64,000 nucleotides of DNA from positions 17,870 through 81,869 of the forward strand of contig JAZDFD010000028.1 of the NCBI GenBank assembly GCA_043808155.1, in the 5' to 3' direction. Each line of letters begins with the position of its first letter. Within the stretch, counting starts at the first letter, position 1. Source of the stretch: Candidatus Iainarchaeum sp. (GTDB lineage Archaea; Iainarchaeota; Iainarchaeia; Iainarchaeales; JAZDFD01). The notes under the pieces are model-generated. The model was not told the DNA's origin and did not search any database. It saw only the letters and a program-made list of their open reading frames with translations. This document shows positions 8,497 to 45,987 of the stretch, one piece after another. The translations under genes and the position numbers were made by a program.

Positions 8497-8822
8497 ATAT
8501 ACATAAACAAAGTATTTAAAGGTAATTAATGTGTCATAGCGAACAACGTGAGCGTACCCGATTTCTGCTTTAGCAGAAATGGGCGCATTTCAGCAGAGCT
8601 GAAATAGCGTGACACCCGTACTCGCCGGACGTGACGGCGATATACATAAACAAAGTATTTAAAGCTAATCCAAAAGCGAACAAAGTGAGCAAGTACTACC
8701 GAGCCAAAGCGAAGTGTACTCAAGCTCGAGGATTGAGCCTCGCGGGCGTTCGGCGCTGGACGTAACGGCGAGCGGAGCGAGATGTGGCACCACAGTGCCA
8801 CGCGCACCAGCCTGGCGCTCGG
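8497..8822. repeat. GC-rich composite palindromic repeat hub made of two related units
   Basis: 25-bp direct repeat 8497-8521/8640-8664; hairpin modules shared with 31341-31395 and 42247-42280. Confidence 0.85.
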
Positions 8823-30014: not shown

Positions 30015-30024
30015 GGTGTAAATT

Positions 30025-30102
30025 TTGAAAAACCATAATTATTACTGTGGCATTGAAAATGCCACACATAAATCGGAGTACCCGTACGAAATCGGGTTGT
30101 GA
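30025..30102 (+). repeat. Junction repeat copy A, within a 25-aa mini-ORF (TTG start)
   Basis: AATTATTAC-GTGGCATT/AATGCCAC-ACATAAATCGGAGTACCCGTACGAAATCGGGT; reads MKNHNYYCGIENATHKSEYPYEIGL*. Confidence 0.88.
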
Positions 30103-30106
30103 TAAC

Positions 30107-30838
30107 ATGCCTGGAAGACTAAAAACACAAAGAAGAGGTAGAGGGACTCCGAGATACCTGGCCTCAAATAAGGGGATTACATGTACATATATTAATTATA
30201 CAGATGAACAAAAGAAAGATGTATTATTTGGCGAAGTTATTAGTTTGATAAAAACAACTGCAAGAAACAGTATTGTTGCAATTGAGAGATTTATAATAGA
30301 CGGTAAGGAAACAGACTCACAAGTAATAGCTGCAGAAGGGTTAAGTGTTGGTCAGAAAATCCAATACGGGACTAATGCAGAACTTGCAATCGGAAATGTT
30401 TTACCACTTTCGAAGATTCCGGAGGGGTGCCCTATATTCAATATTGAAAAAGAAAGTGGGGATGGCGGAACATTTGTAAAAAGCAGCGGGATTTACGCAA
30501 TATTAGTTACAAAGGACAAGAAAAATGCTTACATTAAATTACCATCAGGAAAAACAAAACCATTCACCCTCTTGGCAAGAGCAACAATTGGATGTTCAGC
30601 ATGCGGTGGAAGAACTGAAAAACCTTTCGTCAAAGCAGGAGCCAAATATTTTGCAATGAAAAGAAAAAGGAAAATGTGGCCAGTTGTAAGAGGTGTTGCA
30701 ATGAACGCAGCATACCACCCACACGGTGGTGAACAGCACCATGTTGGTAAGAGTAAGTCTGTATCAAGACACGCTTCACCAGGAAGAAAGGTTGGTGCAA
30801 TTGCTTCGAAGAGAACAGGAAGGAAAAAGAAAAACTAG
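30107..30838 (+). CDS. rpl2: Ribosomal protein uL2
   Basis: QRRGRG N-terminus, VRGVAMNAAYHPHGG, PGRKVG. Confidence 0.95.
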   Translation: MPGRLKTQRRGRGTPRYLASNKGITCTYINYTDEQKKDVLFGEVISLIKTTARNSIVAIERFIIDGKETDSQVIAAEGLSVGQKIQYGTNAELAIGNVLPLSKIPEGCPIFNIEKESGDGGTFVKSSGIYAILVTKDKKNAYIKLPSGKTKPFTLLARATIGCSACGGRTEKPFVKAGAKYFAMKRKRKMWPVVRGVAMNAAYHPHGGEQHHVGKSKSVSRHASPGRKVGAIASKRTGRKKKN

Positions 30839-30848
30839 GGTGTGTTAG

Positions 30849-31256
30849 ATGGCAAGAGTAGAAGAAACATGGCGCGGTAAAAAGATCGAAGATCTTAAAT
30901 CAATGGATATTTCAGAATTTATGAAATTGATAGATTCAAGAGCAAGAAGAAGTATGAAAAGAGGTTTTGATAAAAAGCTCATGAAACAGATTGACAATTA
31001 TGCTGAAAAAATCAAAGATGGAAAATACCAAAAACCAATAAAAACACACCTGAGAGACACGATTGTGATTCCAAAAATGCTGGGACTTAAATTTGCAGTT
31101 TACAGAGGAAACAAGTTTGAGGATATTGACATCGTACCAAATATGCTCGGGCATTTTTTGGGTGAATTTGCACTTACAAGAAAAAGACTTCAGCATGGAA
31201 AGGCAGGAATTGGTGCAACAAGATCAAGTACTGCACTGAAGACAAAGAGAGTCTAA
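30849..31256 (+). CDS. rps19: Ribosomal protein uS19
   Basis: IKTHLRD, MLGHFLGEF, GIGATRSS. Confidence 0.95.
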   Translation: MARVEETWRGKKIEDLKSMDISEFMKLIDSRARRSMKRGFDKKLMKQIDNYAEKIKDGKYQKPIKTHLRDTIVIPKMLGLKFAVYRGNKFEDIDIVPNMLGHFLGEFALTRKRLQHGKAGIGATRSSTALKTKRV

Positions 31257-31264
31257 TGTGAAAA

Positions 31265-31403
31265 ATGATGATTAAGAAATATGAAAAAGCGGGTTATGAC
31301 AGTGCCATCGCAGATGGCACGCGGAGCACCCCGTACGCAACCCTATTTCAACTCAGGGTTGAAATGGGCGCATTTCACAAAAAAGTGAAATAGCGTCGAG
31401 TAG
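31265..31403 (+). repeat. Junction repeat copy E with inserted double-hairpin module, overlapping a 42-aa mini-ORF (31265-31393)
   Basis: GTGCCATC/GATGGCAC stem, CGGAGCACCCCGTACG core, module shared with 8557-8609. Confidence 0.82.
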
Positions 31404-31412
31404 TGATTGAAA

Positions 31413-31886
31413 ATGGCTAAAAGAGAATATCAGAAAAAAGTGAAAAATGAAGCAAAGATTGCAAAAGCGATAGCTGCGAATAAGCCAATTTCAGTTAAAT
31501 ATGCGACAGAAATGTGCAGAGAAATTAAGGGAAGACCTGTAAACAAAGTTGAGAAATTTTTAAACAGAATAATGAACAAAGAGGATTTCTTACCTCTTAA
31601 AAGATATGTGAAGAAAGTAGCACACAGAAAAGGTGACTCAAAATCAGGAACTAAAACAGGAAAATATCCAATAAGAGTTGCAAATGCATTTCTTGAACTT
31701 ATTCAAACTGCAAAAGCAAATGCAGATTTCAAAGGCATTGATACAGAATCGCTTTTGGTTTATCATGCATTTGCATCAACAGGTTTCAGAAGACACAGTG
31801 CACAGGCAAAAGGTCACATCGGCGGAAAGCGCAGAAGAAGTAAATCAACACATATTGAAATCATGCTTATAGAGGGAAAAAAATGA
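31413..31886 (+). CDS. rpl22: Ribosomal protein uL22
   Basis: ISVKYATEMCREIKG, GKYP, THIEI. Confidence 0.94.
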   Translation: MAKREYQKKVKNEAKIAKAIAANKPISVKYATEMCREIKGRPVNKVEKFLNRIMNKEDFLPLKRYVKKVAHRKGDSKSGTKTGKYPIRVANAFLELIQTAKANADFKGIDTESLLVYHAFASTGFRRHSAQAKGHIGGKRRRSKSTHIEIMLIEGKK

Positions 31887-32845
31887 TTGAAAGAACATTT
31901 ATCAAACAGGCAATGAAAAAAATAGAGCTTGAGAAGTACATGAGAACCAATCTTGACAAAGCAGGGTTTACACACTTAGACATTGTGAAAACACCGTTGG
32001 TTACAAGAATCGTGCTTAATGTTACAAAACCAGGTCTGGCAATTGGAAAAGGCGGACAGACAATAAGACAACTTACAGAAGATATTGAAACAAAATTTGG
32101 AATTAACAATCCTCAGATAGAAATTAAGGAAATTGAAAATCCAACATTAGATGCACAGGCAACAGTTGACAAAATGGTTGCATTACTTGAAAGAGGTTTC
32201 AGCTGGAGAAGTATTGCATTCAGAACTGTAAAAGACATTATGGCTGCAGGTGCGCAGGGTTGTGAACTTGTGCTTAGCGGAAAATTAACAGGAAAAGGCG
32301 GAAGAAAAAGAAAGCAGAGAATTGCAGAAGGATATATGAAAAAAGTTGGACACCAAACAGAGTTAGTTGATTATGCAAAAAAATCCGCATACCCAAAAGC
32401 AGGTGCAATTGGAATTAAATTGAGAATAATTAAACCAGGAGTACAGTTCCCAGATAAAATAAAAATCAATGACATAATCACAAAGAAAAAAGCTCCTATC
32501 GTAGAAAAAGAAAATGCAGATGCTGGAAAAACAGAAGTTACTGGTATCAAAGAAGAAGTGAAAATCGAAGTTAAAGAAAAAACTGAAAAGAAAGCAGAAG
32601 TTAAAGTTGAGAAGAAAGATAAGAAACCAGTAGCATATAAAAAAGATGCTAAAAAAGAAGTGACGAACGAAAAGAAAACAGATAAAAAGGAAGCAAAGAA
32701 ATTTGATAAACCAAAAGAAGAAAAGAAAAAATCAGATGACAAGAAAGAAACCAAAGTGAAAGAAGAAAAAGTTGACGACAAAAAAACTGAAAAGAAAGAA
32801 GTGAAAAAAGAAGATAAAAAATCAGATGAGAAAAAAGATAAGTGA
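31883..32845 (+). CDS. rps3: Ribosomal protein uS3 with long K/E/D C-tail
   Basis: KPGLAIGKGG KH motif, GAQGCELVLSGKL. Confidence 0.95.
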   Translation: MIERTFIKQAMKKIELEKYMRTNLDKAGFTHLDIVKTPLVTRIVLNVTKPGLAIGKGGQTIRQLTEDIETKFGINNPQIEIKEIENPTLDAQATVDKMVALLERGFSWRSIAFRTVKDIMAAGAQGCELVLSGKLTGKGGRKRKQRIAEGYMKKVGHQTELVDYAKKSAYPKAGAIGIKLRIIKPGVQFPDKIKINDIITKKKAPIVEKENADAGKTEVTGIKEEVKIEVKEKTEKKAEVKVEKKDKKPVAYKKDAKKEVTNEKKTDKKEAKKFDKPKEEKKKSDDKKETKVKEEKVDDKKTEKKEVKKEDKKSDEKKDK

Positions 32846-32850
32846 TATTT

Positions 32851-32937
32851 ATGAATACGGGAAAAAATTATTACCGCAGTATCGAACGAAGTGAAGATAC
32901 TGCACATAAATCGGAGCACCCGTACGAAATCGGGTAG
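32851..32937 (+). repeat. Junction repeat copy B, within a 28-aa mini-ORF
   Basis: GCAGTATC/GATACTGC stem plus conserved core; reads MNTGKNYYRSIERSEDTAHKSEHPYEIG*. Confidence 0.9.
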
Positions 32938-32945
32938 TGATAGTT

Positions 32946-33155
32946 ATGACAAATAAAGAAGCTAAATCATTCAGGGAGCTTCCAAAAGAAGAACTGAATG
33001 AAAAATTAGTGGATTTGCAAACAGAGCTTGCAAAAGAAAGAGCAACAGTTGCGTCTGGTACGCGACCTGAAAATCCTGGGAACATCAGGAAGCTCAGAAG
33101 AAATATTGCAAGACTTAAAACAATAATTAATGAAAAAAATGAGGTGACTAAGTAG
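32946..33155 (+). CDS. rpl29: Ribosomal protein uL29
   Basis: ENPGNIRKLRRNIARLKT. Confidence 0.94.
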   Translation: MTNKEAKSFRELPKEELNEKLVDLQTELAKERATVASGTRPENPGNIRKLRRNIARLKTIINEKNEVTK

Positions 33156-33157
33156 CA

Positions 33158-33460
33158 ATGGAAGATATTTGTCCTAAATGCGGTCTCCCGCAAAACCTTT
33201 GTGTTTGCCAGGAGATTGCGAAGGAAAGCCAAAAAATAAAAATAAGAACTGACAAAAGAAGATTTGGTAAATTAGTGACAATTGTTTCGGGTTTGGATGA
33301 ATCAAAAAGTGCAGATCAATTATGCAAGGAACTAAAAAGAAAACTTGCGTGTGGTGGCACTGTGAGAAACTCGGAAATTTTATTGCAAGGAAACCATAGT
33401 AAAAAAGTGAAAGCCTTTCTGCTAAAGCAGGGATATAAAGAGGAATTAATTGATGATTAA
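33158..33460 (+). CDS. Translation initiation factor aIF1 (SUI1)
   Basis: CPKCGLP..LCVC, KRRFGK, LACGGTV, LQGNH. Confidence 0.93.
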   Translation: MEDICPKCGLPQNLCVCQEIAKESQKIKIRTDKRRFGKLVTIVSGLDESKSADQLCKELKRKLACGGTVRNSEILLQGNHSKKVKAFLLKQGYKEELIDD

Positions 33461-33764
33461 GGGAAAACATTATGAAATAACACAAAAAAATCTGCCTGCA
33501 CATGAGCTTATCGGGCTTAATGCAAAGGTTGTGAAAAGTGTTGATTCAAAAAAAACCGGAGTTAAGGGAAAAGTTGTAAATGAAACAAAAAATATTCTGG
33601 AATTGGAGAACAACAGCGTTATAAAAAAAATCCCGAAAAAAGAAGTTGTGTTTGAATTTGAAATTGGAAATGAAAAAATTATAATTGACGGAAAAATGTT
33701 AAATGAAAAACCAGAGAATCGTGTAAAGGAGTTTTGGAGGAAATACCATGGAAAACTGCAATGA
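33453..33764 (+). CDS. rnp1: RNase P protein Rpp29
   Basis: HELIGL, GKVVNETKN, IPK; synteny. Confidence 0.92.
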   Translation: MIKGKHYEITQKNLPAHELIGLNAKVVKSVDSKKTGVKGKVVNETKNILELENNSVIKKIPKKEVVFEFEIGNEKIIIDGKMLNEKPENRVKEFWRKYHGKLQ

Positions 33765-34083
33765 CCCAAAGTGCCCAAAATGCGGCAATATCAAAGTAAG
33801 GGGCAATATTTTCACAGGTATTGTAACATCTGCAAAAGCAGATAAGACAGTCACTGTTGAAAGACAGTTAGTTAAAAAAGTTAGAAAATATGAAAGATAC
33901 AAAAAAATAAGATCCAAAATCCATGCACACAATTCAAAATGTGTTTCAGCAAAAGAAGGCGACACAGTAAGAATTGGAGAAACAAGAAAATTAAGCAAAA
34001 CAAAAAGTTTTGTTGTGATGGACATTCTTAACAAAGGGTCAGATGAAAAGCCAAAAACAGATAAGAAAAAGGTGAAAAAATGA
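33748..34083 (+). CDS. rps17: Ribosomal protein uS17
   Basis: CNDPKCP, KYERY, ETRKLSKTK. Confidence 0.95.
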   Translation: MENCNDPKCPKCGNIKVRGNIFTGIVTSAKADKTVTVERQLVKKVRKYERYKKIRSKIHAHNSKCVSAKEGDTVRIGETRKLSKTKSFVVMDILNKGSDEKPKTDKKKVKK

Positions 34084-34478
34084 AAGCAATCAGCGCCAGA
34101 AGGACCATGGGTTTAACACAAAAAAGCAGATGCGTTTGCGCAGACAACTCAGGCGCAAAAGAGGTTGAAATCATCACAGTTTTTGGTCACAAATCAAGAA
34201 AAAAGATGAGTCCAAAAGGCGGAATCGCAGATATGGTTAATGTTGTTGTAAAAAAAGGAAAACCCGAAATCAGAAAAAAAGTTGAGCGTGCAGTTATTGT
34301 AAGAGTGAAACAAGAATACAGAAGAGCAAATGGCATGAGAGTAAAATTCGAAGACAATGCAGTTGTTCTTGTGGATAATAAGGGAATTCCTAAAGGAAGT
34401 GAAATTAAAGGTGCAGTTGCAAAAGAAGCTGCAGAAAGATGGGTAAAAATCGGGGGCATTGCCTCAGTAGTAGTATAG
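34080..34478 (+). CDS. rpl14: Ribosomal protein uL14
   Basis: CADNSGAK, FEDNAVV. Confidence 0.95.
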   Translation: MKAISARRTMGLTQKSRCVCADNSGAKEVEIITVFGHKSRKKMSPKGGIADMVNVVVKKGKPEIRKKVERAVIVRVKQEYRRANGMRVKFEDNAVVLVDNKGIPKGSEIKGAVAKEAAERWVKIGGIASVVV

Positions 34479-34487
34479 GTGGATTAA

Positions 34488-34964
34488 ATGAAAAGCTCAA
34501 AACCAAGAAAACAAAGAAAAGCGCTTTACACAAGAACTGTTCATAAAAAACAGAATGACTTAGCAGGGCATCTGAGTAAAGAACTCAGAAAAGAGCTGAA
34601 ACAAAGATCAATTCCTCTGAGAAAAGAAGACAAAGTTAAGATTATGAGAGGGTCACACAAGGCAAGAGAAGGAAAAATAATTGATGTTAATTACACCAAG
34701 GGATTTGTGTATATTGAAAAAGTTATCAGAAAAAAGGCAGACGGAACTGAAGTGCCGGTGCCGGTAAGAGCGTCAAATGTAATGGTTGTTGGCCTTTACA
34801 GAGATGATGACAGAAGAATTAAAAGAAAAACTCTGAAAAAAGTCACAAAATCCGAAAAAAAAGACAAGAAAGAAAAAGCTTATGACAAAAAAGCATATAC
34901 AAAAGTGAAAGAAGAGAAATCTGAAAAAAAGGAAGATAATAAAGCTAAGGCGAAGGTGAAATAA
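34488..34964 (+). CDS. rpl24: Ribosomal protein uL24 with K/E C-tail
   Basis: SSKPRKQRK, LSKELR, DKVKIMRG. Confidence 0.94.
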   Translation: MKSSKPRKQRKALYTRTVHKKQNDLAGHLSKELRKELKQRSIPLRKEDKVKIMRGSHKAREGKIIDVNYTKGFVYIEKVIRKKADGTEVPVPVRASNVMVVGLYRDDDRRIKRKTLKKVTKSEKKDKKEKAYDKKAYTKVKEEKSEKKEDNKAKAKVK

Positions 34965-35683
34965 TGGCTAAAAAAGGAAGCAAAAAATCAGAAAAAAGAA
35001 TAAGCACTGATAAAGTCAGAAACATAAAGAAAAAAGAAAAAACATGGACAATAAAGGCAGAGCCAGGACCTCACAAAAAATCAACTTCCGTACCTTTAGG
35101 TTTTATTTTGAGAGACCTTCTTGAAGTAGCACAAAATTTGAGAGAAGTTAAACAGATACTTAACAGTAAAAGCGTCAAAGTAGACGGAACTTTAAGAACA
35201 AGTTACAGATTCCCTGTAGGTCTTTTCGATGTTGTTTCATTCAACAAAGATAAAAAAGGCTACAGATTAGTTTATGATTTTAAAGGCAGATTAATGGTCA
35301 AGGAAATTGAAGGCAAAGAACTTAACAAAAAAATATGTAAAATTACTAATAAAAAAACAGGGAAAACAGGAATTACTGAACTTGTAACAAATGATGGAAG
35401 AATATTCAAAGAAAAAAATGCGAAATACAAAGTTGGTGATTCATTAGAAATTGAACTTCCCGGCCAGAAAATTTCAAAGTCACTTGAATTCGCAAAAGGG
35501 AACACAGCATATGTTTCAGGCGGAACGCACATTTCAGCAATGGGAAAAATAACAGAAATTGTTGCAGGAACAATGAAAAGAAAAACACTTGTTACATTGA
35601 AGACTGCAGACAAAGAAGAGTTCAGTACAACTGAAAATAACATAATTGTTATTGGTAAAGAGAAAGGGGAAATAGATATTTAA
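34964..35683 (+). CDS. rps4e: Ribosomal protein eS4
   Basis: PGPH, VKVDG, FPVGLFDV. Confidence 0.94.
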   Translation: MAKKGSKKSEKRISTDKVRNIKKKEKTWTIKAEPGPHKKSTSVPLGFILRDLLEVAQNLREVKQILNSKSVKVDGTLRTSYRFPVGLFDVVSFNKDKKGYRLVYDFKGRLMVKEIEGKELNKKICKITNKKTGKTGITELVTNDGRIFKEKNAKYKVGDSLEIELPGQKISKSLEFAKGNTAYVSGGTHISAMGKITEIVAGTMKRKTLVTLKTADKEEFSTTENNIIVIGKEKGEIDI

Positions 35684-35699
35684 AATTAGAGTGAGTTTT

Positions 35700-36212
35700 A
35701 TGACAGAAAATACAATGCGCACAATCATTGTCGAGAAAGTTACTGTAAATATGGGTGTAGGCCAAGCTGGCGACGAACTCAAAAAATCAAAAACAGTAAT
35801 TGAGACAATTACAGGTGCAAAAGCAATTGAAACAAAGTGTAAAGTTAAACAACCAAAATGGGACATCAGACCAGGTTTACCTATTGGAATTAAAGTTACA
35901 CTTAGAAAAAAACAGGCAACTGACTTTTTGAAACGTGCGATTAATGCAAAGCAAAACATAATCAAAAAAAAGAGTTTTGATATGCAGGGTAACTTCGGAT
36001 TTGGAATCAAAGAACATATTGATCTTCCAGGAGTTAAATATGACCCTAAATTAGGAATACGGGGTCTTGATGTTTTAGTAACACTTAAAAGAAACGGACA
36101 GCGTGTTAAGAAAAGAAAAATTGCAAAAACAAAAATTGGCAAAAAGCACATAATAACAAAAAAAGACGCAATGCAATTCATGAAAGAACAATTTGGAGTT
36201 GAAGTTGAATGA
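35700..36212 (+). CDS. rpl5: Ribosomal protein uL5
   Basis: [26 protein letters not shown]. Confidence 0.95.
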
Positions 36213-36379
36213 GTTCCAAAACAAAAGGTCCAAAAAAAGATCTAAAAAAAGAAAAACAAGCAAGAGTATGCACAAATTGCGGGACTAGAAATGCAATCAT
36301 AAGAAAATACAATCTCAATGTCTGCAGAAGATGCTTTAAAGAATTAGCAGAAAAATTAGGCTTTAGGAAATATGGTTAA
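36209..36379 (+). CDS. rps14: Ribosomal protein uS14 (absent from the ORF track)
   Basis: Manual translation, 56 aa: CTNCG...[26 protein letters not shown]. Confidence 0.93.
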
Positions 36380-36395
36380 ATGAGGGGTGGTAAAA

Positions 36396-36788
36396 ATGAC
36401 ATTAGTAGATCCAATAGCAAACGCAATGATAAGCATTAAGAATAGCGACATTGCCTCAAAAAAAGAATGTATATTTCGACCTGCATCAAAACTTCTGGGA
36501 AAAATCTTAGAAGTTATGCAAAAAAAAGGATACATCGGAATTTATGAATTCATAGATGACGGACAAGAAGGTATTTACAAAATAGAACTTAAAGGAAAAA
36601 TTAATGATTGTAAAGCAATAAAGCCAAGATATGCAGTTAAGAAAGATGGATTTGAAAAATTTGAAAAAAGATATTTACCTTCAAAGGATGTTGGAATTTT
36701 GATTGTTTCAACACCAGAGGGTGTATTAACACATAAAGAAGCAAAGGAATCCAATGTCGGGGGCAGATTATTAGCTTATATTTATTAA
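36396..36788 (+). CDS. rps8: Ribosomal protein uS8
   Basis: [27 protein letters not shown]. Confidence 0.95.
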
Positions 36789-36799
36789 TGGTGTTTTGA

Positions 36800-37342
36800 A
36801 TGAAAACAGGATTTGTGGAAGAAATAATTGAAGTGCCGGAAGGCATTGAATGTGAAATTCAGAAAAAGACAGTTACTGTTAAGAAAGGAGATAAAACAAT
36901 CACAAAAACATTTGATATGATTGGAGTAGTTTTCAAAAAAGAAGGGAACAGAGTTCAGATTTCCACAAAATATCCTAAGAAAAAAACTGCAGCAATGCTG
37001 AAAACAGCAGCGGCTCATTTGAAAAATATGATTAACGGACTTCAGGAAGAATATGTGTATAAGCTCGCAATTATTTATTCACACTTTCCAATGACTGTTA
37101 CAGTTAAAGATGGATTTTTAGAAATAAACAACTTTGCAGGTGAGAAAAAAACCAGAAAAGCAAAGATTATGGCTAATACAAAAGTTGAAGTTAAGGGGAA
37201 AGAAGTTACAGTTAGATCACATAACAAGGAAAATGCAGGTCAGACTACGGCAAATATTGAATCTGCAACAAAAGTAAAAGGAAAAGATAAAAGAATTTTT
37301 CAAGATGGCATTTGGATTACTGAAAAACCAAAGAAAAGATAA
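36800..37342 (+). CDS. rpl6: Ribosomal protein uL6
   Basis: YSHFPM, NFAGEK, DKRIFQDGI. Confidence 0.95.
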   Translation: MKTGFVEEIIEVPEGIECEIQKKTVTVKKGDKTITKTFDMIGVVFKKEGNRVQISTKYPKKKTAAMLKTAAAHLKNMINGLQEEYVYKLAIIYSHFPMTVTVKDGFLEINNFAGEKKTRKAKIMANTKVEVKGKEVTVRSHNKENAGQTTANIESATKVKGKDKRIFQDGIWITEKPKKR

Positions 37343-37353
37343 TGGGTGAAAAC

Positions 37354-37905
37354 ATGGCAACTGCAGAAAAACACAAAACTGATAAAAAAGAAGTGACGAA
37401 AGCAAAGAAAACATCAGTTACAACAAAAAAAGCAGATACTAAAACAAAAACTGCAGAAAAAAAAGAAACAACTGCAAAGAAAAAAACTGCAGAAAAAAAA
37501 CCAGGTGCTAAAAAAACAATTAAAAAAAGCAGTGCTGCAAAAAAAGCACAGGCATTAATTAAAAAGAAAGTTAAGAAACCAAGTTTCAGAGGAAGATTTG
37601 GTTCGAGAAAATTCAGAAGAAAAAGTAACGCAAAATGGGACAAATGGAGAAAACCGCGTGGTATTGATATCAAAGACACCCAGGAAAACGGAACTAGTCC
37701 AAGAACAGGTTATGGTACTTGCAAACTCATAAAGACTATGCACCCTTCAGGATATTATGAAAAAATGATATTTAATCCAAGAGATTTGGACGGTATTGAT
37801 GCAGAAAGATTTGCATTGAGAATTTCAGCAGGTGTAGGAAAGAAAAAAAGGTCTGAAATTGCAAAAAAAGCAAGGGAAATGGGACTACGTATTTTAAACA
37901 GGTGA
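37354..37905 (+). CDS. rpl32e: Ribosomal protein eL32 with long K/T/A-rich N-extension
   Basis: WRKPRGID, HPSG, VGKKKR. Confidence 0.93.
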   Translation: MATAEKHKTDKKEVTKAKKTSVTTKKADTKTKTAEKKETTAKKKTAEKKPGAKKTIKKSSAAKKAQALIKKKVKKPSFRGRFGSRKFRRKSNAKWDKWRKPRGIDIKDTQENGTSPRTGYGTCKLIKTMHPSGYYEKMIFNPRDLDGIDAERFALRISAGVGKKKRSEIAKKAREMGLRILNR

Positions 37906-37909
37906 AAAA

Positions 37910-37987
37910 ATGATTTACAAAAAAAATTATTACCGTGGGATTGTAAATCCCACACATAAATCGGAGCACCCGTACGAAATCGGGTAG
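37910..37987 (+). repeat. Junction repeat copy C, within a 25-aa mini-ORF
   Basis: GTGGGATT/AATCCCAC stem plus core; reads MIYKKNYYRGIVNPTHKSEHPYEIG*. Confidence 0.9.
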
Positions 37988-37996
37988 GTGAAATGA

Positions 37997-38437
37997 ATGA
38001 AACTAGACCAAGTAAAGAGATTAGCCGCAGATGTTCTTAACGTGGGCGTAACCAGAATATGGATTGACCCTAAAGAAGTTGGGAATGTTGCAGAAGTTAT
38101 TACAAAAGATGATGTAAGAGCTTTAGTTGCAGACGGAGTAATCAAGAAAAGAAGAGTGCAGGCACAAAGCCACGGCCATGCACGTTTATTAGCTGAAAAG
38201 AAAAGTAAAGGTCTGAAAAAAGGAAAAGGTAAAAGAAAAGGAAAAGTTAATGCAAGAACACATAGAAAGAAAAAGTGGATTAAAACAGTCCGTGCACAAA
38301 GAGATGAACTTAAAAAACTTAAAACAGAAAACCCTGAAGCAGTTGCAGAAGCAAATTACCATTCTATTTACAGAAGAATAAAAGGCGGATATTACAAAGG
38401 TAGAAAATACGTGAGAAGCGCAGTACTTAAGAAGTGA
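37997..38437 (+). CDS. rpl19e: Ribosomal protein eL19
   Basis: KRLAADVL.VG..RIWIDP, GKRKG, WIKTVRAQR. Confidence 0.94.
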   Translation: MKLDQVKRLAADVLNVGVTRIWIDPKEVGNVAEVITKDDVRALVADGVIKKRRVQAQSHGHARLLAEKKSKGLKKGKGKRKGKVNARTHRKKKWIKTVRAQRDELKKLKTENPEAVAEANYHSIYRRIKGGYYKGRKYVRSAVLKK

Positions 38438-38442
38438 TGATT

Positions 38443-38547
38443 ATGAATTTAGAAGAAAATTATTACCGTGGTTTTGAGCAAAACGAAAAACCACACATAA
38501 CTCGGAGCACCCGTACGAAATCGGGTAGTGCAATACTTAAGAAGTGA
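38443..38547 (+). repeat. Junction repeat copy D, within a 34-aa mini-ORF and flanked by a duplicated rpl19e 3' end
   Basis: GTGGTTTT/AAAACCAC stem plus core; TACTTAAGAAGTGAT at 38424 and 38534. Confidence 0.9.
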
Positions 38548-38553
38548 TAAATT

Positions 38554-39141
38554 ATGGCAAACAAAGCAACATACGATGTTCAATTCAAAAGAAGAAGCAA
38601 TGGTAAAACCAATTACAAAAAAAGACTGGCATTAGTTAAATCAGGAAAGCCAAGATTAGTTGTAAGGAAAACCAACAGCAGAATAATTGTACAGATTATT
38701 GCATATGAGAGACCCGGTGACAAGGTTATTGTAAGTGCAACATCAGTACAGCTTAAAAAATATGGCTGGGCAGGAAACAAAAATATACCTTCAGCATATT
38801 TAACAGGATTACTTTGCGGAATGCGCGCAAAAGAAGCAAAAATTAATCAAGCAGTTTTAGATATTGGATTTAGAACACCTGTTCACATGTCAGTTCCATT
38901 CGCAGCACTAAAAGGTGCACTGGATGCAGGGCTTGACATTCCATTTGATGAAACCGCACTTCCAAAAGAAGACAGAATCACAGGAAAACATATTGAAAAC
39001 TATGCAAATTCATTGGATAGCGAAGAAATTAACAAAAAGTTTTCAAAAATGATTAAAAATAATGTAAATCCAAAAGAAATTACAAAAATATTCCAAAATA
39101 CTAAAGAGAAAATTGTGGGAAACAGTAATGTAAAAGAGTGA
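38554..39141 (+). CDS. rpl18: Ribosomal protein uL18
   Basis: GKTNYKKRL, RLVVRKTN, AYLTGLLCG. Confidence 0.95.
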   Translation: MANKATYDVQFKRRSNGKTNYKKRLALVKSGKPRLVVRKTNSRIIVQIIAYERPGDKVIVSATSVQLKKYGWAGNKNIPSAYLTGLLCGMRAKEAKINQAVLDIGFRTPVHMSVPFAALKGALDAGLDIPFDETALPKEDRITGKHIENYANSLDSEEINKKFSKMIKNNVNPKEITKIFQNTKEKIVGNSNVKE

Positions 39142-45871: not shown

Positions 45872-45987
45872 GCAGGAGTACCAAAGTGGTTAAATGGGCG
45901 GGACTTAAGATGTTATTATGAAGTCATTAAAATCATGGGAAATCCCGTGGCTTAGTGCCTCCGCAGGTTCGAATCCTGCCTCCTGCA
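45872..45987 (+). tRNA. tRNA-Leu(TAA) with 32-nt intron at 37/38 (45910-45941)
   Basis: GCAGGAG/CTCCTGC acceptor stem, CGGGA-CTTAAG/A-TCCCG anticodon arm, long variable arm, GGTTCGAATCC; BHB with CTTA/TGGG helix; CCA not encoded. Confidence 0.93.

Follow-up and report, generated by a model that had tools for sequence, protein, structure and literature searches.

We found that a short repeat at gene junctions of the ribosomal super-operon, in the 64,000-nt stretch of archaeal DNA analyzed here (the window), is very probably a structured, mobile, and non-autonomous element, counting only those parts of the reading that were observed directly. It would represent a small mobile element of undescribed type in a tiny archaeal genome. 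Our best explanation, in which belief and doubt are evenly balanced, is a family of non-autonomous mobile elements distributed across an archaeal order, copied from the 3′ end into staggered breaks, with tRNA ends as preferred targets. The copy-from-the-3′-end mechanism, taken as a separate claim, is somewhat more tentative.

Copies and fold of the repeat

The 24-nt core CGGAGYACCCGTACGAAATCGGGT occurred four times in the window with ≤3 mismatches, against a chance expectation of 0.00, and none of 100 shuffles reached four. The original prediction had listed five copies, four of them clear and one derived; all five positions were exact, and none was expected by chance. Every operon copy lies on the + strand, in the orientation of the operon. 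As had been stated for copies ahead of large-subunit genes, the clear copies stop directly at the SD, 9–27 nt 5′ of the start codons of uL2, uL29, eL19, and uL18 (gene names verified by Pfam). Both hairpins form in the fold of each copy (z-scores relative to shuffles, −2.0 to −3.2).

All members were shown to share one fold, about 60–90 nt in element length. Its outer helix, P0, has 4 bp; next come a conserved internal loop (UACC/AC) and helix P1, which is 8 bp long, variable, and closed by a loop rich in purines. The remainder is a compact H-type pseudoknot (PK) on a second helix (P2, 5–6 bp), in which UCG 5′ of P2 pairs with CGA inside the P2 loop. The stem-1 arms had been predicted to pair perfectly and to covary by compensation. 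Each pair was found as written in all five copies, and the covariation was confirmed, but stem 2 covaries as well, and P0 and the pseudoknot had been missed. The 20 copies compared within this genome had two-sided changes at 12 of 18 pairs, with 92.5% of cells paired, a result that 0/500 shuffles equaled. In 55 copies of relatives, compensatory changes on both sides were observed in 20 of 21 pairs, with 94.5% paired compared to 28–44% in slid controls; the search model contained neither P0 nor the pseudoknot. Pseudoknot pairs in the relatives' copies were UA (29), GC (11), and CG (3), and 20 of the 47 copies that could be scored (54 distinct rows, of which 7 had gaps) have U·G at the P0 pair 6–60. 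In P1 and P2, G·U versus A·C mismatches numbered 6 versus 2 in this genome and 11 versus 10 in relatives. Such a rarity of G·U, close to that of A·C, would not normally be expected from a constraint acting on RNA alone; it is consistent with a DNA hairpin or with a structure required on both strands. The operon copies, with their covariance-model E values, and the associated duplications are as follows.

30021..30097, + strand: copy 1, uL23/uL2 junction; A-rich 5′ leader 30021-30036, core P0-P1-PK-P2 30037-30097; E 1e-19
31293..31403, + strand: derived copy, uS19/uL22 junction; E=0.1 only
32841..32854, + strand: left target duplication of copy 2; contains the uS3 stop, SD, and ATG
32855..32935, + strand: copy 2, uS3/uL29 junction; leader 32855-32865, core 32866-32935; E 5e-22
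32936..32949, + strand: right target duplication of copy 2; working uL29 SD and start codon; offset +0
37900..37913, + strand: left target duplication of copy 3; contains the eL32 stop, SD, and ATG
37914..37985, + strand: copy 3, eL32/eL19 junction; leader 37914-37924, core 37925-37985; E 2e-20
37986..37999, + strand: right target duplication of copy 3; eL19 SD and start codon
38417..38445, + strand: left target duplication of copy 4; last eL19 codons and stop, SD, and ATG
38446..38526, + strand: copy 4, eL19/uL18 junction; leader 38446-38457, core 38458-38526; E 7e-24
38527..38556, + strand: right target duplication of copy 4; eL19 C-terminal codons as a pseudo-copy, followed by the working uL18 SD and start codon

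The leader AATTTTGA of copy 1 is common to copy 4 and to one copy in a metagenome contig. The copy at 31293..31403, described earlier as derived, does belong to the family, but as a variant type without the 3′ strand of P0. The same type recurs at C26:62610, C2:2484, and C13:8410, and the stem-2 loop of the operon copy is broken by a nested twin-hairpin module, a separate repeat, at 31344-31391.

The family extends well beyond the operon. The covariance model gave 47 matches (E≤1) in this 1.08-Mb genome and matched 27 of 60 same-order relatives (E≤1e-3) and 46 of 150 genomes of a phylum sample (E≤1e-4), with copy numbers from 0 to 21 inside one genus. Genome-wide, copies lie on both strands and are frequently antisense to adjoining genes. 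With matches across the genome and the order, the repeat is not the feature of the ribosomal super-operon that had been proposed. The same distribution, named in advance as speaking against a regulatory or processing RNA of this operon, disposes of that reading; a general RNA-processing role for the repeat is left standing by the operon test.

A check against Rfam, which had been recommended, returned no known family for the repeat. At Rfam 15 gathering scores, the only match in the whole window was a tRNA, and at E≤10 no match overlapped the copies in the region 37880-38560. Across 20 copy-bearing loci from nine genomes, no family recurred on the copies; the one weak overlap was anti-hemB (E 2.8, opposite strand, locus L256). 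The Rfam models of self-cleaving ribozymes (hammerhead, HDV-like, twister, pistol, and hatchet) also had no match on copies, and a new ribozyme class lies beyond what computation can exclude.

Empty sites and target duplications

Comparison of loci showed that the ribosomal-operon copies were inserted recently, with duplication of between 11 and about 29 nt of target. This conclusion follows from empty junctions in relatives, the near-absence of the repeat from the operons of 80 species, and the flanking duplications. Copies 3 and 4 were absent in 4/4 metagenome loci (eL19 80-92% identical), where the eL32/eL19 and eL19/uL18 junctions are empty and the target is single and unduplicated; the target sequence of copy 3 is single in the empty sites of L033-L036. 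The uL18 site was also empty, with copy 4 absent, in one contig of metagenome run X1, and another metagenome contig carries a copy between uL2 and uS19, a junction that has none in this genome. When the model was run on the operon loci of 80 other species, two weak matches were all that emerged. In up to 14 most similar loci per junction (61 searched), the upstream stop is no more than about 40 nt from the start; the stop-to-start spacing at the copy-bearing junctions here is 91-156 nt. The TATTAC motif was missing when sought in the empty sites, indicating that the 5′ motif is inserted DNA and not target.

The duplications vary in length from 7 to about 30 nt, and the right copy starts at the element 3′ end, which is the last base of P2. 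At eight loci, direct repeats were reached by only 0-1 of 200 shuffles. The right repeat was offset from the element 3′ end by +0 in seven of these strong loci and by +2 in the eighth, and the left repeat lay 3-36 nt 5′ of the core, across a variable leader. Scored repeat lengths were 8, 11, 13, 14, 16, 18, 20, 22, and 32 nt. In the operon, the duplication of copy 2 is 14 nt with one mismatch (score reached by 0/200 shuffles), that of copy 4 is 22 nt as scored and about 27-29 nt with mismatches, and that of copy 1 is weak. Because each duplication restores the upstream stop on the left and the downstream SD and start on the right, the tightly packed operon remains intact. An exact 3′ junction, a variable 5′ side, and variable-length duplications were thus found together, which is the combination that marks SINE-like retroposons.

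A double-ended insert at C2:2439-2563 has one pseudoknot domain at each end, in inverted orientation, within an exact 18-nt duplication; its two inverted 3′ domains differ in sequence. A second candidate of this kind, C12:69831-69936, was better read as a long diverged duplication and was set aside, so that the double-ended evidence comes from one locus.

tRNA ends, mobilizing enzymes, and proposed mechanism

In many genomes, no more than 3 nt separate the element 3′ end from a tRNA gene end or an intron border. In this genome, the gap between the element 3′ end and a tRNA 3′ end is 0-5 nt in 10 antisense copies (9/10 at 0-2 nt), three antisense copies lie 2 nt from ORF stops, four are inside tRNA introns, and one sense copy lies 2 nt before a tRNA. 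Among 57 copies of relatives, 10 are in tRNA introns, seven are antisense at tRNA 3′ ends, and three are sense at tRNA 5′ ends; in none of the 57 did the element 5′ end adjoin a tRNA. The tRNA-end pattern recurs in genome G156. An antisense copy occupies the tRNA-Glu(UUC) intron in all three genomes in which that intron was seen (G000, which is this genome, G049, and G156). The introns holding copies are ARAGORN calls; in the tRNA-Glu intron, a relaxed bulge-helix-bulge (BHB) motif could be drawn by hand only. The folds of the mRNA copies, computed on sequences that stop short of the flanks, showed no flank-to-flank pairing. None of the copies adjoining tRNA 3′ ends showed a duplication, and these copies may differ in origin or be old.

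Next, candidate mobilizing enzymes were considered. No reverse transcriptase (RT) of the RVT_1 family (PF00078) was detected in nine high-copy genomes (G000, G014, G015, G029, G074, G156, G073, G147, and G091). Seven of 60 relatives contain an RT, and its presence does not track the element. With no RT found, target-primed reverse transcription is left without its enzyme, unless this came from a virus, an unbinned replicon, or a host polymerase. The Y1 HUH transposase (Y1_Tnp, PF01797) was likewise absent from G000 (88% complete) and from G014, G015, and G029 (94-99% complete; 11-25 copies), and was present in G049 and G053; the four Y1-free genomes hold 11 to about 40 model matches. The earlier remark that no transposase is present in the window can thus be extended, for the Y1 type, to this genome as assembled and to three near-complete high-copy relatives. 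The flanks of the two TnpB-like ORFs in G000 are unrelated. Viral_Rep was matched in 0/5 genomes, by a search that matched no control genome either, and no copy that the model confirmed came out of three pattern scans of viral contigs.

The original prediction had offered a REP/MITE-like non-autonomous element. Lineage-specific insertions with target duplications bear out its main point, but the repeat is not a classical MITE, a REP, or an IS200/IS605 derivative. REP/BIME with RAYT and IS200/IS605-derived PATEs resemble it as short, strand-specific intergenic hairpins with compensatory stem changes, tolerated between operon genes, where they may protect mRNA 3′ ends. However, they depend on a Y1 HUH nuclease and leave no target duplication, whereas the repeat has long variable duplications, a pseudoknot, no Y1 gene, and no target motif in its empty sites, and a PATE or REP-RAYT origin was rejected on these grounds. 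Classical MITEs, as generally described (Correia, RUP, and Sulfolobus SM), share its small size, non-autonomy, multiple copies, location at gene junctions, and strain-variable presence. They have terminal inverted repeats and a fixed-length duplication set by a DDE transposase; the repeat has neither, since its 5′ A-rich leader/TATTAC and 3′ CGGGT are not complementary and its duplications vary in length. Fungal mitochondrial double-hairpin elements and the mobile hairpin elements of other mitochondria are also tiny two-hairpin structures, more conserved in structure than in sequence, lying at junctions and introns of a compact genome, with mobility inferred from relatives and no known enzyme. 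Such elements occur in rRNA spacers too. They differ from the repeat in host and sequence, and we know of none with a pseudoknot, with long target duplications of variable length, or with a preference for tRNA ends.

SINEs and other non-autonomous retroposons of eukaryotes, copied by target-primed reverse transcription, share several features with the repeat. Like it, they are short, encode no protein, and have a structured 3′ end, an exact 3′ junction, a looser 5′ side, and variable-length target duplications, and the inverted double-ended insert resembles twin priming. Some of their relatives, such as the Dictyostelium TRE elements and Ty3, insert beside tRNA genes. The repeat differs from SINEs in that no RT partner was found, there is no 3′ A-tail or sign of an internal promoter, and the host is archaeal; to our knowledge, no SINE-like element has been described in prokaryotes.

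We propose that the template would be a single-stranded + strand intermediate, most simply an RNA with its 3′ end trimmed back to the stable pseudoknot. The GNA or purine-rich P1 loops on the + strand and the frequent U·G at the P0 pair 6–60 speak for this strand. A target 3′ hydroxyl at a staggered break would then prime copying from the element 3′ end, as in SINE-type target-primed synthesis, and breaks at tRNA gene ends and tRNA intron borders would be the preferred targets. Priming at both nicks would yield inverted pseudoknot domains at both ends, as seen at C2:2439-2563. In its most specific form, this would be the first SINE-like prokaryotic element, a structured RNA, perhaps from tRNA leaders or from any element-carrying transcript, trimmed to its 3′ pseudoknot and copied into staggered breaks by a polymerase other than a canonical RT, with tRNA ends and intron borders preferred; we regard this version as speculative, with the balance clearly against it. 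If it is true, insertion would also give rise to archaeal tRNA introns or lengthen existing ones, and would introduce new spacers into operons.

Alternative explanations

Conservation of the fold across the order, in genomes without any mobilizing gene, could mean a host function instead. The repeat may be an RNA punctuation element, in which the pseudoknot-P2 unit mimics a tRNA acceptor arm or blocks exonucleases, with cutting or trimming exactly at the 3′ end. This would release a downstream tRNA or an SD-starting mRNA, or stop read-through from either side; mobility would be incidental, and copies would be kept as useful. The element 3′ end does face an adjoining functional RNA at 0-3 nt, on either side, in many genomes, and the covarying fold persists in near-complete genomes of the order that lack both transposase and RT. 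The antisense copy in all three tRNA-Glu(UUC) introns and the RNase P p29 subunit encoded in the genome (Pfam) point the same way, and the organelle tRNA punctuation or t-elements, as usually described, offer a parallel, since a compact structure at the border of a neighboring RNA could mark a putative processing site. However, 61 operon loci with Iainarchaeum-like record titles have tight junctions without the element, about half of the sampled phylum genomes have no match, and copy number ranges from 0 to 21 inside one genus. Furthermore, most tRNA-linked copies are antisense, so that a + strand RNA would require antisense transcription, and, unlike t-elements, the repeat is demonstrably inserted DNA. 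We consider the punctuation reading improbable.

A DNA-level element that travels as single-stranded DNA is distinctly less credible. A virus or plasmid would supply the HUH-type nuclease (Rep, or a Y1 or Y2 transposase), and this enzyme would recognize the hairpins and cut one strand within the conserved 5′ motif. The pairs of the repeat are almost exclusively Watson-Crick, with G·T as rare as A·C, which accords with such an element, and GNA triloops are stable in DNA hairpins as well. The 5′ motif (A/T)(A/T)TATTAC resembles the site at which small circular ssDNA viruses are nicked by their Rep proteins, and the TTAC within it resembles the IS608 target. TTAC before stem 1 and GGAG at the foot of stem 2 had been suggested as signs of an HUH-transposase substrate. 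The TTAC-containing motif is missing from the empty sites, and GGAG is unconserved in the family. The 5′ motif is itself inserted DNA, half of it paired in P0 with covariation, and HUH transposition leaves no target duplication, whereas the copies have long, variable ones. The Y1_Tnp, Viral_Rep, and viral-contig searches described above, with the stated control result, speak against this explanation too.

Slightly less likely again is movement with no dedicated enzyme, in which forks stall at folded tRNA genes or hairpins and the nascent strand switches to an element beside another tRNA, copies until it stalls again at the base of that tRNA, and returns; a stretch would sometimes be copied again and become the duplication. 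Fork switching would account for the missing mobilizing gene, for exact tRNA-end borders on both sides, for the lack of duplications at tRNA-adjoining copies, and for variable duplication lengths elsewhere. It leaves unexplained why one structured passenger, with its conserved pseudoknot and internal loop, is found across the whole order and why copies far from tRNAs end exactly at P2; junction microhomology was not evident on inspection.

Finally, a short reading frame begins at the duplicated start codon, crosses each of the four clear copies, and ends at the next SD, and in copies 1-3 this is one shared frame, open from a start codon with an SD ahead of it until the stop at the following SD. 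A small repeated protein gene in the operon (25-37 aa, ...NYYRG...HKSEHPYEIG) is nevertheless refuted, in our view, by frame differences, as the 3′ half of copy 4 and the C31 copy are in another frame. In addition, many copies are antisense to genes, in tRNA introns, or without a start codon, and the variable part keeps base pairing and not residues.

Fold of the element and its copies in the ribosomal-protein operon

The repeat analyzed here is an element of 60-90 bases, folded as an outer helix (P0), an internal loop, stem 1 (P1), a pseudoknot, and stem 2 (P2); its 3' end is the last base of stem 2. The original prediction of four clear copies and one derived copy was exact in its coordinates, and the stem-1 arms of the window copies match those it had listed. 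A 24-nt core occurs four times in the window, where shuffles expect none, and folding gave z-scores of -2.0 to -3.2 for the two-hairpin fold of each copy. The genes of the operon were checked using Pfam (uL23, uL2, uS19, uL22, uS3, uL29, RNase P p29, eL32, eL19, and uL18).

Copies in the window and the short frames that cross the clear ones (each frame has the duplicated SD and start codon at its 5' end)
30021-30097, clear copy 1, uL23/uL2 junction; frame 30025-30102
32855-32935, clear copy 2, uS3/uL29 junction; frame 32851-32937
37914-37985, clear copy 3, eL32/eL19 junction; frame 37910-37987
38446-38526, clear copy 4, eL19/uL18 junction; frame 38443-38547
31293-31403, derived copy, uS19/uL22 junction; variant type with a nested twin hairpin in the stem-2 loop

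Next, we analyzed the pairing of the copies. The covariation claimed for stem 1 was upheld, and stem 2 covaries likewise. Two further pairings had been missed: P0, in which the conserved 5' motif (W-U-A-U of ..ATATTAC) pairs with ACAUAW after stem 1, and the pseudoknot, in which the linker UCG pairs with CGA of the stem-2 loop. Among 20 copies of this genome, both-sided changes were observed in 12 of 18 pairs, with 92.5% of cells paired; for 55 copies from 24 other genomes, the values were 20 of 21 pairs and 94.5%. A control with slid partners showed 28-44% pairing, and none of 500 shuffles attained the observed covariation values. Because only stems 1 and 2 guided the alignment of the relatives' copies, P0 and the pseudoknot were tested independently. 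Counts of copies for the outer pseudoknot pair are 29 with UA, 11 with GC, and 3 with CG; those for the inner P0 pair are 21 with UA, 20 with UG, and 5 with CG. In our reading of 20 aligned rows from this genome, the outermost P0 pair is always Watson-Crick: members of the AATTATTAC subfamily have T-A, and those of the ATATTAC subfamily have A-T. On the + strand, stem 1 is closed by a GNA triloop or by a longer loop rich in purines. Unexpectedly, G.U pairs are as rare in stems 1 and 2 as A.C. A TATA-box or promoter role of the A/T-rich motifs was rejected because these motifs are base-paired with covariation and turn G/C-rich in some relatives. Many copies are followed by T-runs in the antisense orientation, inconsistently, and may have terminator activity in that orientation as a side effect.

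Five junctions of this operon measure 91-156 nt, and the remaining ones are short or overlapping. In the operons of related species, compared at the uL22, uL18, and eL19 junctions, no more than ~40 nt separate the start codon from the upstream stop (best 14 or fewer loci per junction of 61 species' loci). The operon duplications each span overlapping stop, SD, and start signals. The left duplicate retains the stop of the upstream gene, and the right duplicate retains the downstream SD and ATG. The most conserved operon of the cell was entered at five junctions and left intact, because insertion duplicated these signals. Each clear copy is crossed by a frame of 25-37 codons that opens at the left (orphan) duplicated start codon and closes 4-10 nt short of the real one (last base of the stop at 30102, 32937, 37987, and 38547). 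Translational coupling across the operon copies is, therefore, likely preserved, which bears on tolerance and not on a peptide; such read-through frames would let ribosomes unwind the element and then re-initiate. A small peptide gene in the copies was rejected because the reading frames differ between the four copies. Two operon proteins carry extensions: uS3 a C-terminal one of ~120 residues rich in K, E, and D (window 32480-32845), and eL32 a lysine-rich N-terminal one of ~85 residues outside the Pfam domain (window 37342-37600).

Distribution, empty sites, and target duplications

An nhmmer scan was employed, followed by a covariance model trained on 20 copies. In the genome (1.08 Mb, 35 contigs), 47 matches were obtained at E<=1, ~40 of them below 1e-3, spread over 16 contigs on both strands. 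The family is not specific to the operon: matches are genome-wide, on both strands, and present in relatives. With the same model, 27 of 60 same-order relatives carry the element at E<=1e-3, as do 46 of 150 genomes of a phylum sample at E<=1e-4, and copy number within a single genus ranges from 0 to 21. Of 40 copies, 28 are oriented like the coding strand around them, an effect that on contigs was inseparable from replication direction. In several genomes, units of element and spacer are arrayed in tandem (period ~87-100 nt). Families with arrays or C/D-box-like neighbours were seen at two relatives' loci, L022 (G018:C4) and L024 (G032:C2), and also in the genomes G010, G015, G018, and G074; in two families, a sequence with C/D-box-like motifs precedes the element, which duplicates ~13 nt from the end of that sequence.

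No Rfam 15 family matched the copies at its gathering score, as the original prediction had proposed to check. At E<=10, the sole contact with a copy was anti-hemB (E 2.8, opposite strand, relative's locus L256), and no family recurred. Literature searches on DPANN, Diapherotrites/Iainarchaeota, archaeal MITEs, tRNA intron transposition, and interspersed structured repeats listed no description of the element; the recombinase-bearing element of PMC3293823 is distinct from the present one.

Insertion was analyzed at empty sites, whose comparison had been suggested together with the prediction. All four metagenome contigs with eL19 at 80-92% identity showed compact eL32/eL19 and eL19/uL18 junctions from which the element is absent, and they contain a single copy of the sequence that flanks copies 3 and 4 twice in the window. 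Among 80 operon loci of other species (840 kb), the covariance model gave only two weak matches. One of them (L079:1548-1599) is a degenerate copy lacking the 5' motif at the uS3/uL29 spot of copy 2, with AGTGAT (AGTGATATTTATG) directly 3'; the site is an insertion hot spot, or else the copy stems from an old insertion once shared and since lost in closer relatives. Contigs of four DNA runs from public groundwater metagenomes were informative only where the window was covered. One joins 38444 to 38554 via 16 other letters, an empty uL18 site, and another has a copy between uL2 and uS19 (a junction empty here) flanked by ~22 duplicated bases; at one contig each and 85% likeness, both are weak hints.

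A direct-repeat scan around all matches showed eight loci with repeats attained by 0-1 of 200 shuffles. The right duplicate adjoins stem 2 directly in seven of the eight and begins two bases further on in the other, the left duplicate lies 3-36 nt upstream of the model start, and the scored lengths are 11-32 nt. Here C2:2484 and C2:2459 were counted as one locus, and C12:29556 and C23:50802 were left out, their flanking repeats being another repeat module (C numbers are contigs of this genome). Four further copies have shorter flanking repeats (7-8 nt), among which that of copy 3 was validated by the empty sites. A leader, AATTT(T/A)GA plus an A-run, is common to copies 1 and 4 and the metagenome copy, indicating that the 5' part is transcribed or copied sequence and not random filler. 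Searched against this genome, the 5' leaders gave no donor flank, save a 'tail' at C2:2457 that is an inverted 3' domain. At this locus (C2:2439-2563), an exact 18-nt duplication surrounds an 89-nt insert with an inverted pseudoknot-stem-2 domain at each end, each adjoining one repeat copy. The two domains differ in sequence type, and the left is 90% identical to the 3' domain of a copy 3 kb off. Such a product would be expected if synthesis starting from the element's 3' end were primed at both nicks of a staggered break.

Position relative to tRNAs and genes

Positions of copies in this genome
~12 copies, same strand, just upstream of ORF starts
10 copies, antisense, 3' ends of copy and tRNA 0-5 nt apart (9 at 0-2 nt)
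3 copies, antisense, 2 nt from an ORF stop
4 copies, within tRNA introns (3 antisense, 1 sense)
1 copy, sense, 2 nt upstream of tRNA-Ser

In these copies and in the tRNA-linked ones of relatives given below, the stem-2 end faces the neighbour, and the 5' end never does. One tRNA-abutting copy lies between tRNA-Ala and 23S rRNA, antisense to the pre-rRNA. Among 57 copies of relatives, 10 are in tRNA introns (9 antisense), 7 are antisense at tRNA 3' ends, and 3 are sense at tRNA 5' ends, the gaps in these last two groups being -1 to 2; for 33 of the 57, no tRNA was found in the fetched flanks. In one relative (G156), ARAGORN linked 4 of 18 copies to tRNAs, and five further tRNA neighbours that it left uncalled (L243, L247, L251, L253, and L255) were recognized by eye. 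The tRNA-Glu(UUC) intron holds an antisense copy in this genome (G000) and in two relatives (G049 and G156). The direct-repeat scan found no target duplication at tRNA-abutting copies. That the copies favour tRNA gene ends and intron borders is shown as a pattern.

ARAGORN called 45 tRNAs in this genome, 16 with introns of 16-169 nt when long introns were allowed; some calls were mis-named, a 'Pyl' call being an intron-bearing tRNA, and the window tRNA found through Rfam (45872-45987) is among those with an intron. At C4:15969-16250 and C24:19582-20799, the longest open frame has the element within its 5' end and continues through it with no stop codon. Unless translation begins at the downstream ATG, the element would add an N-terminus to the annotated protein.

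Mobilization and accompanying repeat modules

As shown by these results, the copies belong to one family of structured elements, mobile and non-autonomous, that had no counterpart in the databases searched. For its movement, we infer a + strand single-stranded intermediate ending at the last base of stem 2. Copying would begin from this 3' end, primed by a target 3' hydroxyl, and a second nick at variable distance would give the variable duplication length. The exact 3' end could arise through exonuclease trimming back to the stable pseudoknot or through an RNase P cut of the element as a tRNA leader. The odds for this copying from the 3' end are modest, since the enzyme was not found in the genomes searched, the near-absence of G.U pairs suits DNA as much as RNA, and order-wide conservation without a mobilizing gene could mean a host role. 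In the first rival, the element would be a portable RNA-processing or exonuclease-stop signal. A second rival, which the scarcity of G.U pairs fits, is single-stranded DNA mobilization by an HUH nuclease supplied in trans. The Y1 HUH transposase proposed as a search target was not found in this genome or in G014, G015, and G029, relatives that are 94-99% complete with 11-25 copies. A Viral_Rep search gave no match, and it matched no control genome either. This assembly, lacking a Y1 transposase, has two TnpB-like ORFs (C23:24585-25826 and C7:8169-9413; 413-414 aa, Cas12f1-like zinc-ribbon domain), and TnpB was rejected as partner, the flanks of both ORFs being unrelated to the element. The third rival is enzyme-free template switching at stalled forks.

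Returning to copying from the 3' end, no RVT_1 reverse transcriptase was found in nine of nine high-copy genomes, and the reverse transcriptases of seven relatives do not track the element. Viral contigs in three pattern scans gave 1, 27, and 9 stretches and no model-confirmed copy. The single stretch of the first scan (14.1 bits, E 0.0029) lacked the stems and was discounted as a chance match, the other 36 all failed to reach E<=0.01, and we estimate the number of pattern matches to be about the chance level.

The element was compared with SINEs, REPs, mitochondrial double-hairpin elements, t-elements, twin priming, and Rep nick sites. SINEs are most similar in behaviour, with the exact 3' junction, variable duplications, and tRNA-linked targeting, and REP-type and mitochondrial double-hairpin repeats are most similar in appearance. 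Unlike IS200/IS605 or REP derivatives, the element has duplications and no Y1 gene was found; unlike classical MITEs, it has neither inverted terminal repeats nor a fixed duplication length. As it thus fits neither IS200/IS605 or REP derivatives nor classical MITEs nor any Rfam family, it is classed among small non-autonomous interspersed elements. DPANN archaea with 1-Mb genomes are thought to be very poor in mobile DNA, and this one holds tens of copies. To our knowledge, a pseudoknot fold with robust covariation, target duplications of long and variable length, an exact 3' border, preferred positions at tRNA gene ends and intron borders, and the lack of a recognizable transposase or reverse transcriptase come together in no described prokaryotic element; there is a substantial chance that the mechanism is new. 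If an RNA intermediate is involved, retroposition without a canonical reverse transcriptase in archaea becomes testable, and a concrete route for archaeal tRNA intron gain is provided. If a host nuclease cuts at the border, the element would be a portable RNA-processing signal. Either way, it is a new RNA family with ~200 aligned examples for Rfam-type annotation of Iainarchaeota genomes, and it accounts for their oddly long operon spacers.

Two other repeat modules were observed.

Other repeat modules in this genome
Twin-hairpin repeat: window 31344-31391 and 8561-8606; C1:86910, C6:39275, C12:38528, C13:16454, C14:53265, C26:56531
Third module, outside the window: C1:28190-28235, C12:29520-29650, C23:50780-50900

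Upstream of several weak element matches is the third module, which consists of a GGGACTCNGTCCC hairpin with CCCTGAAA after it; this module gave false 'target duplications' of 20-39 nt in the direct-repeat scan. The second family is a quasi-palindromic twin hairpin with arms ATTTC...GAAAT, found at 9 loci by a simple pattern. It is nested in the stem-1 loop of the main element (C13 and C14), between pseudoknot and stem 2 at C1:79-192, and in the stem-2 loop of the window's derived copy; several of its copies adjoin tRNA genes.
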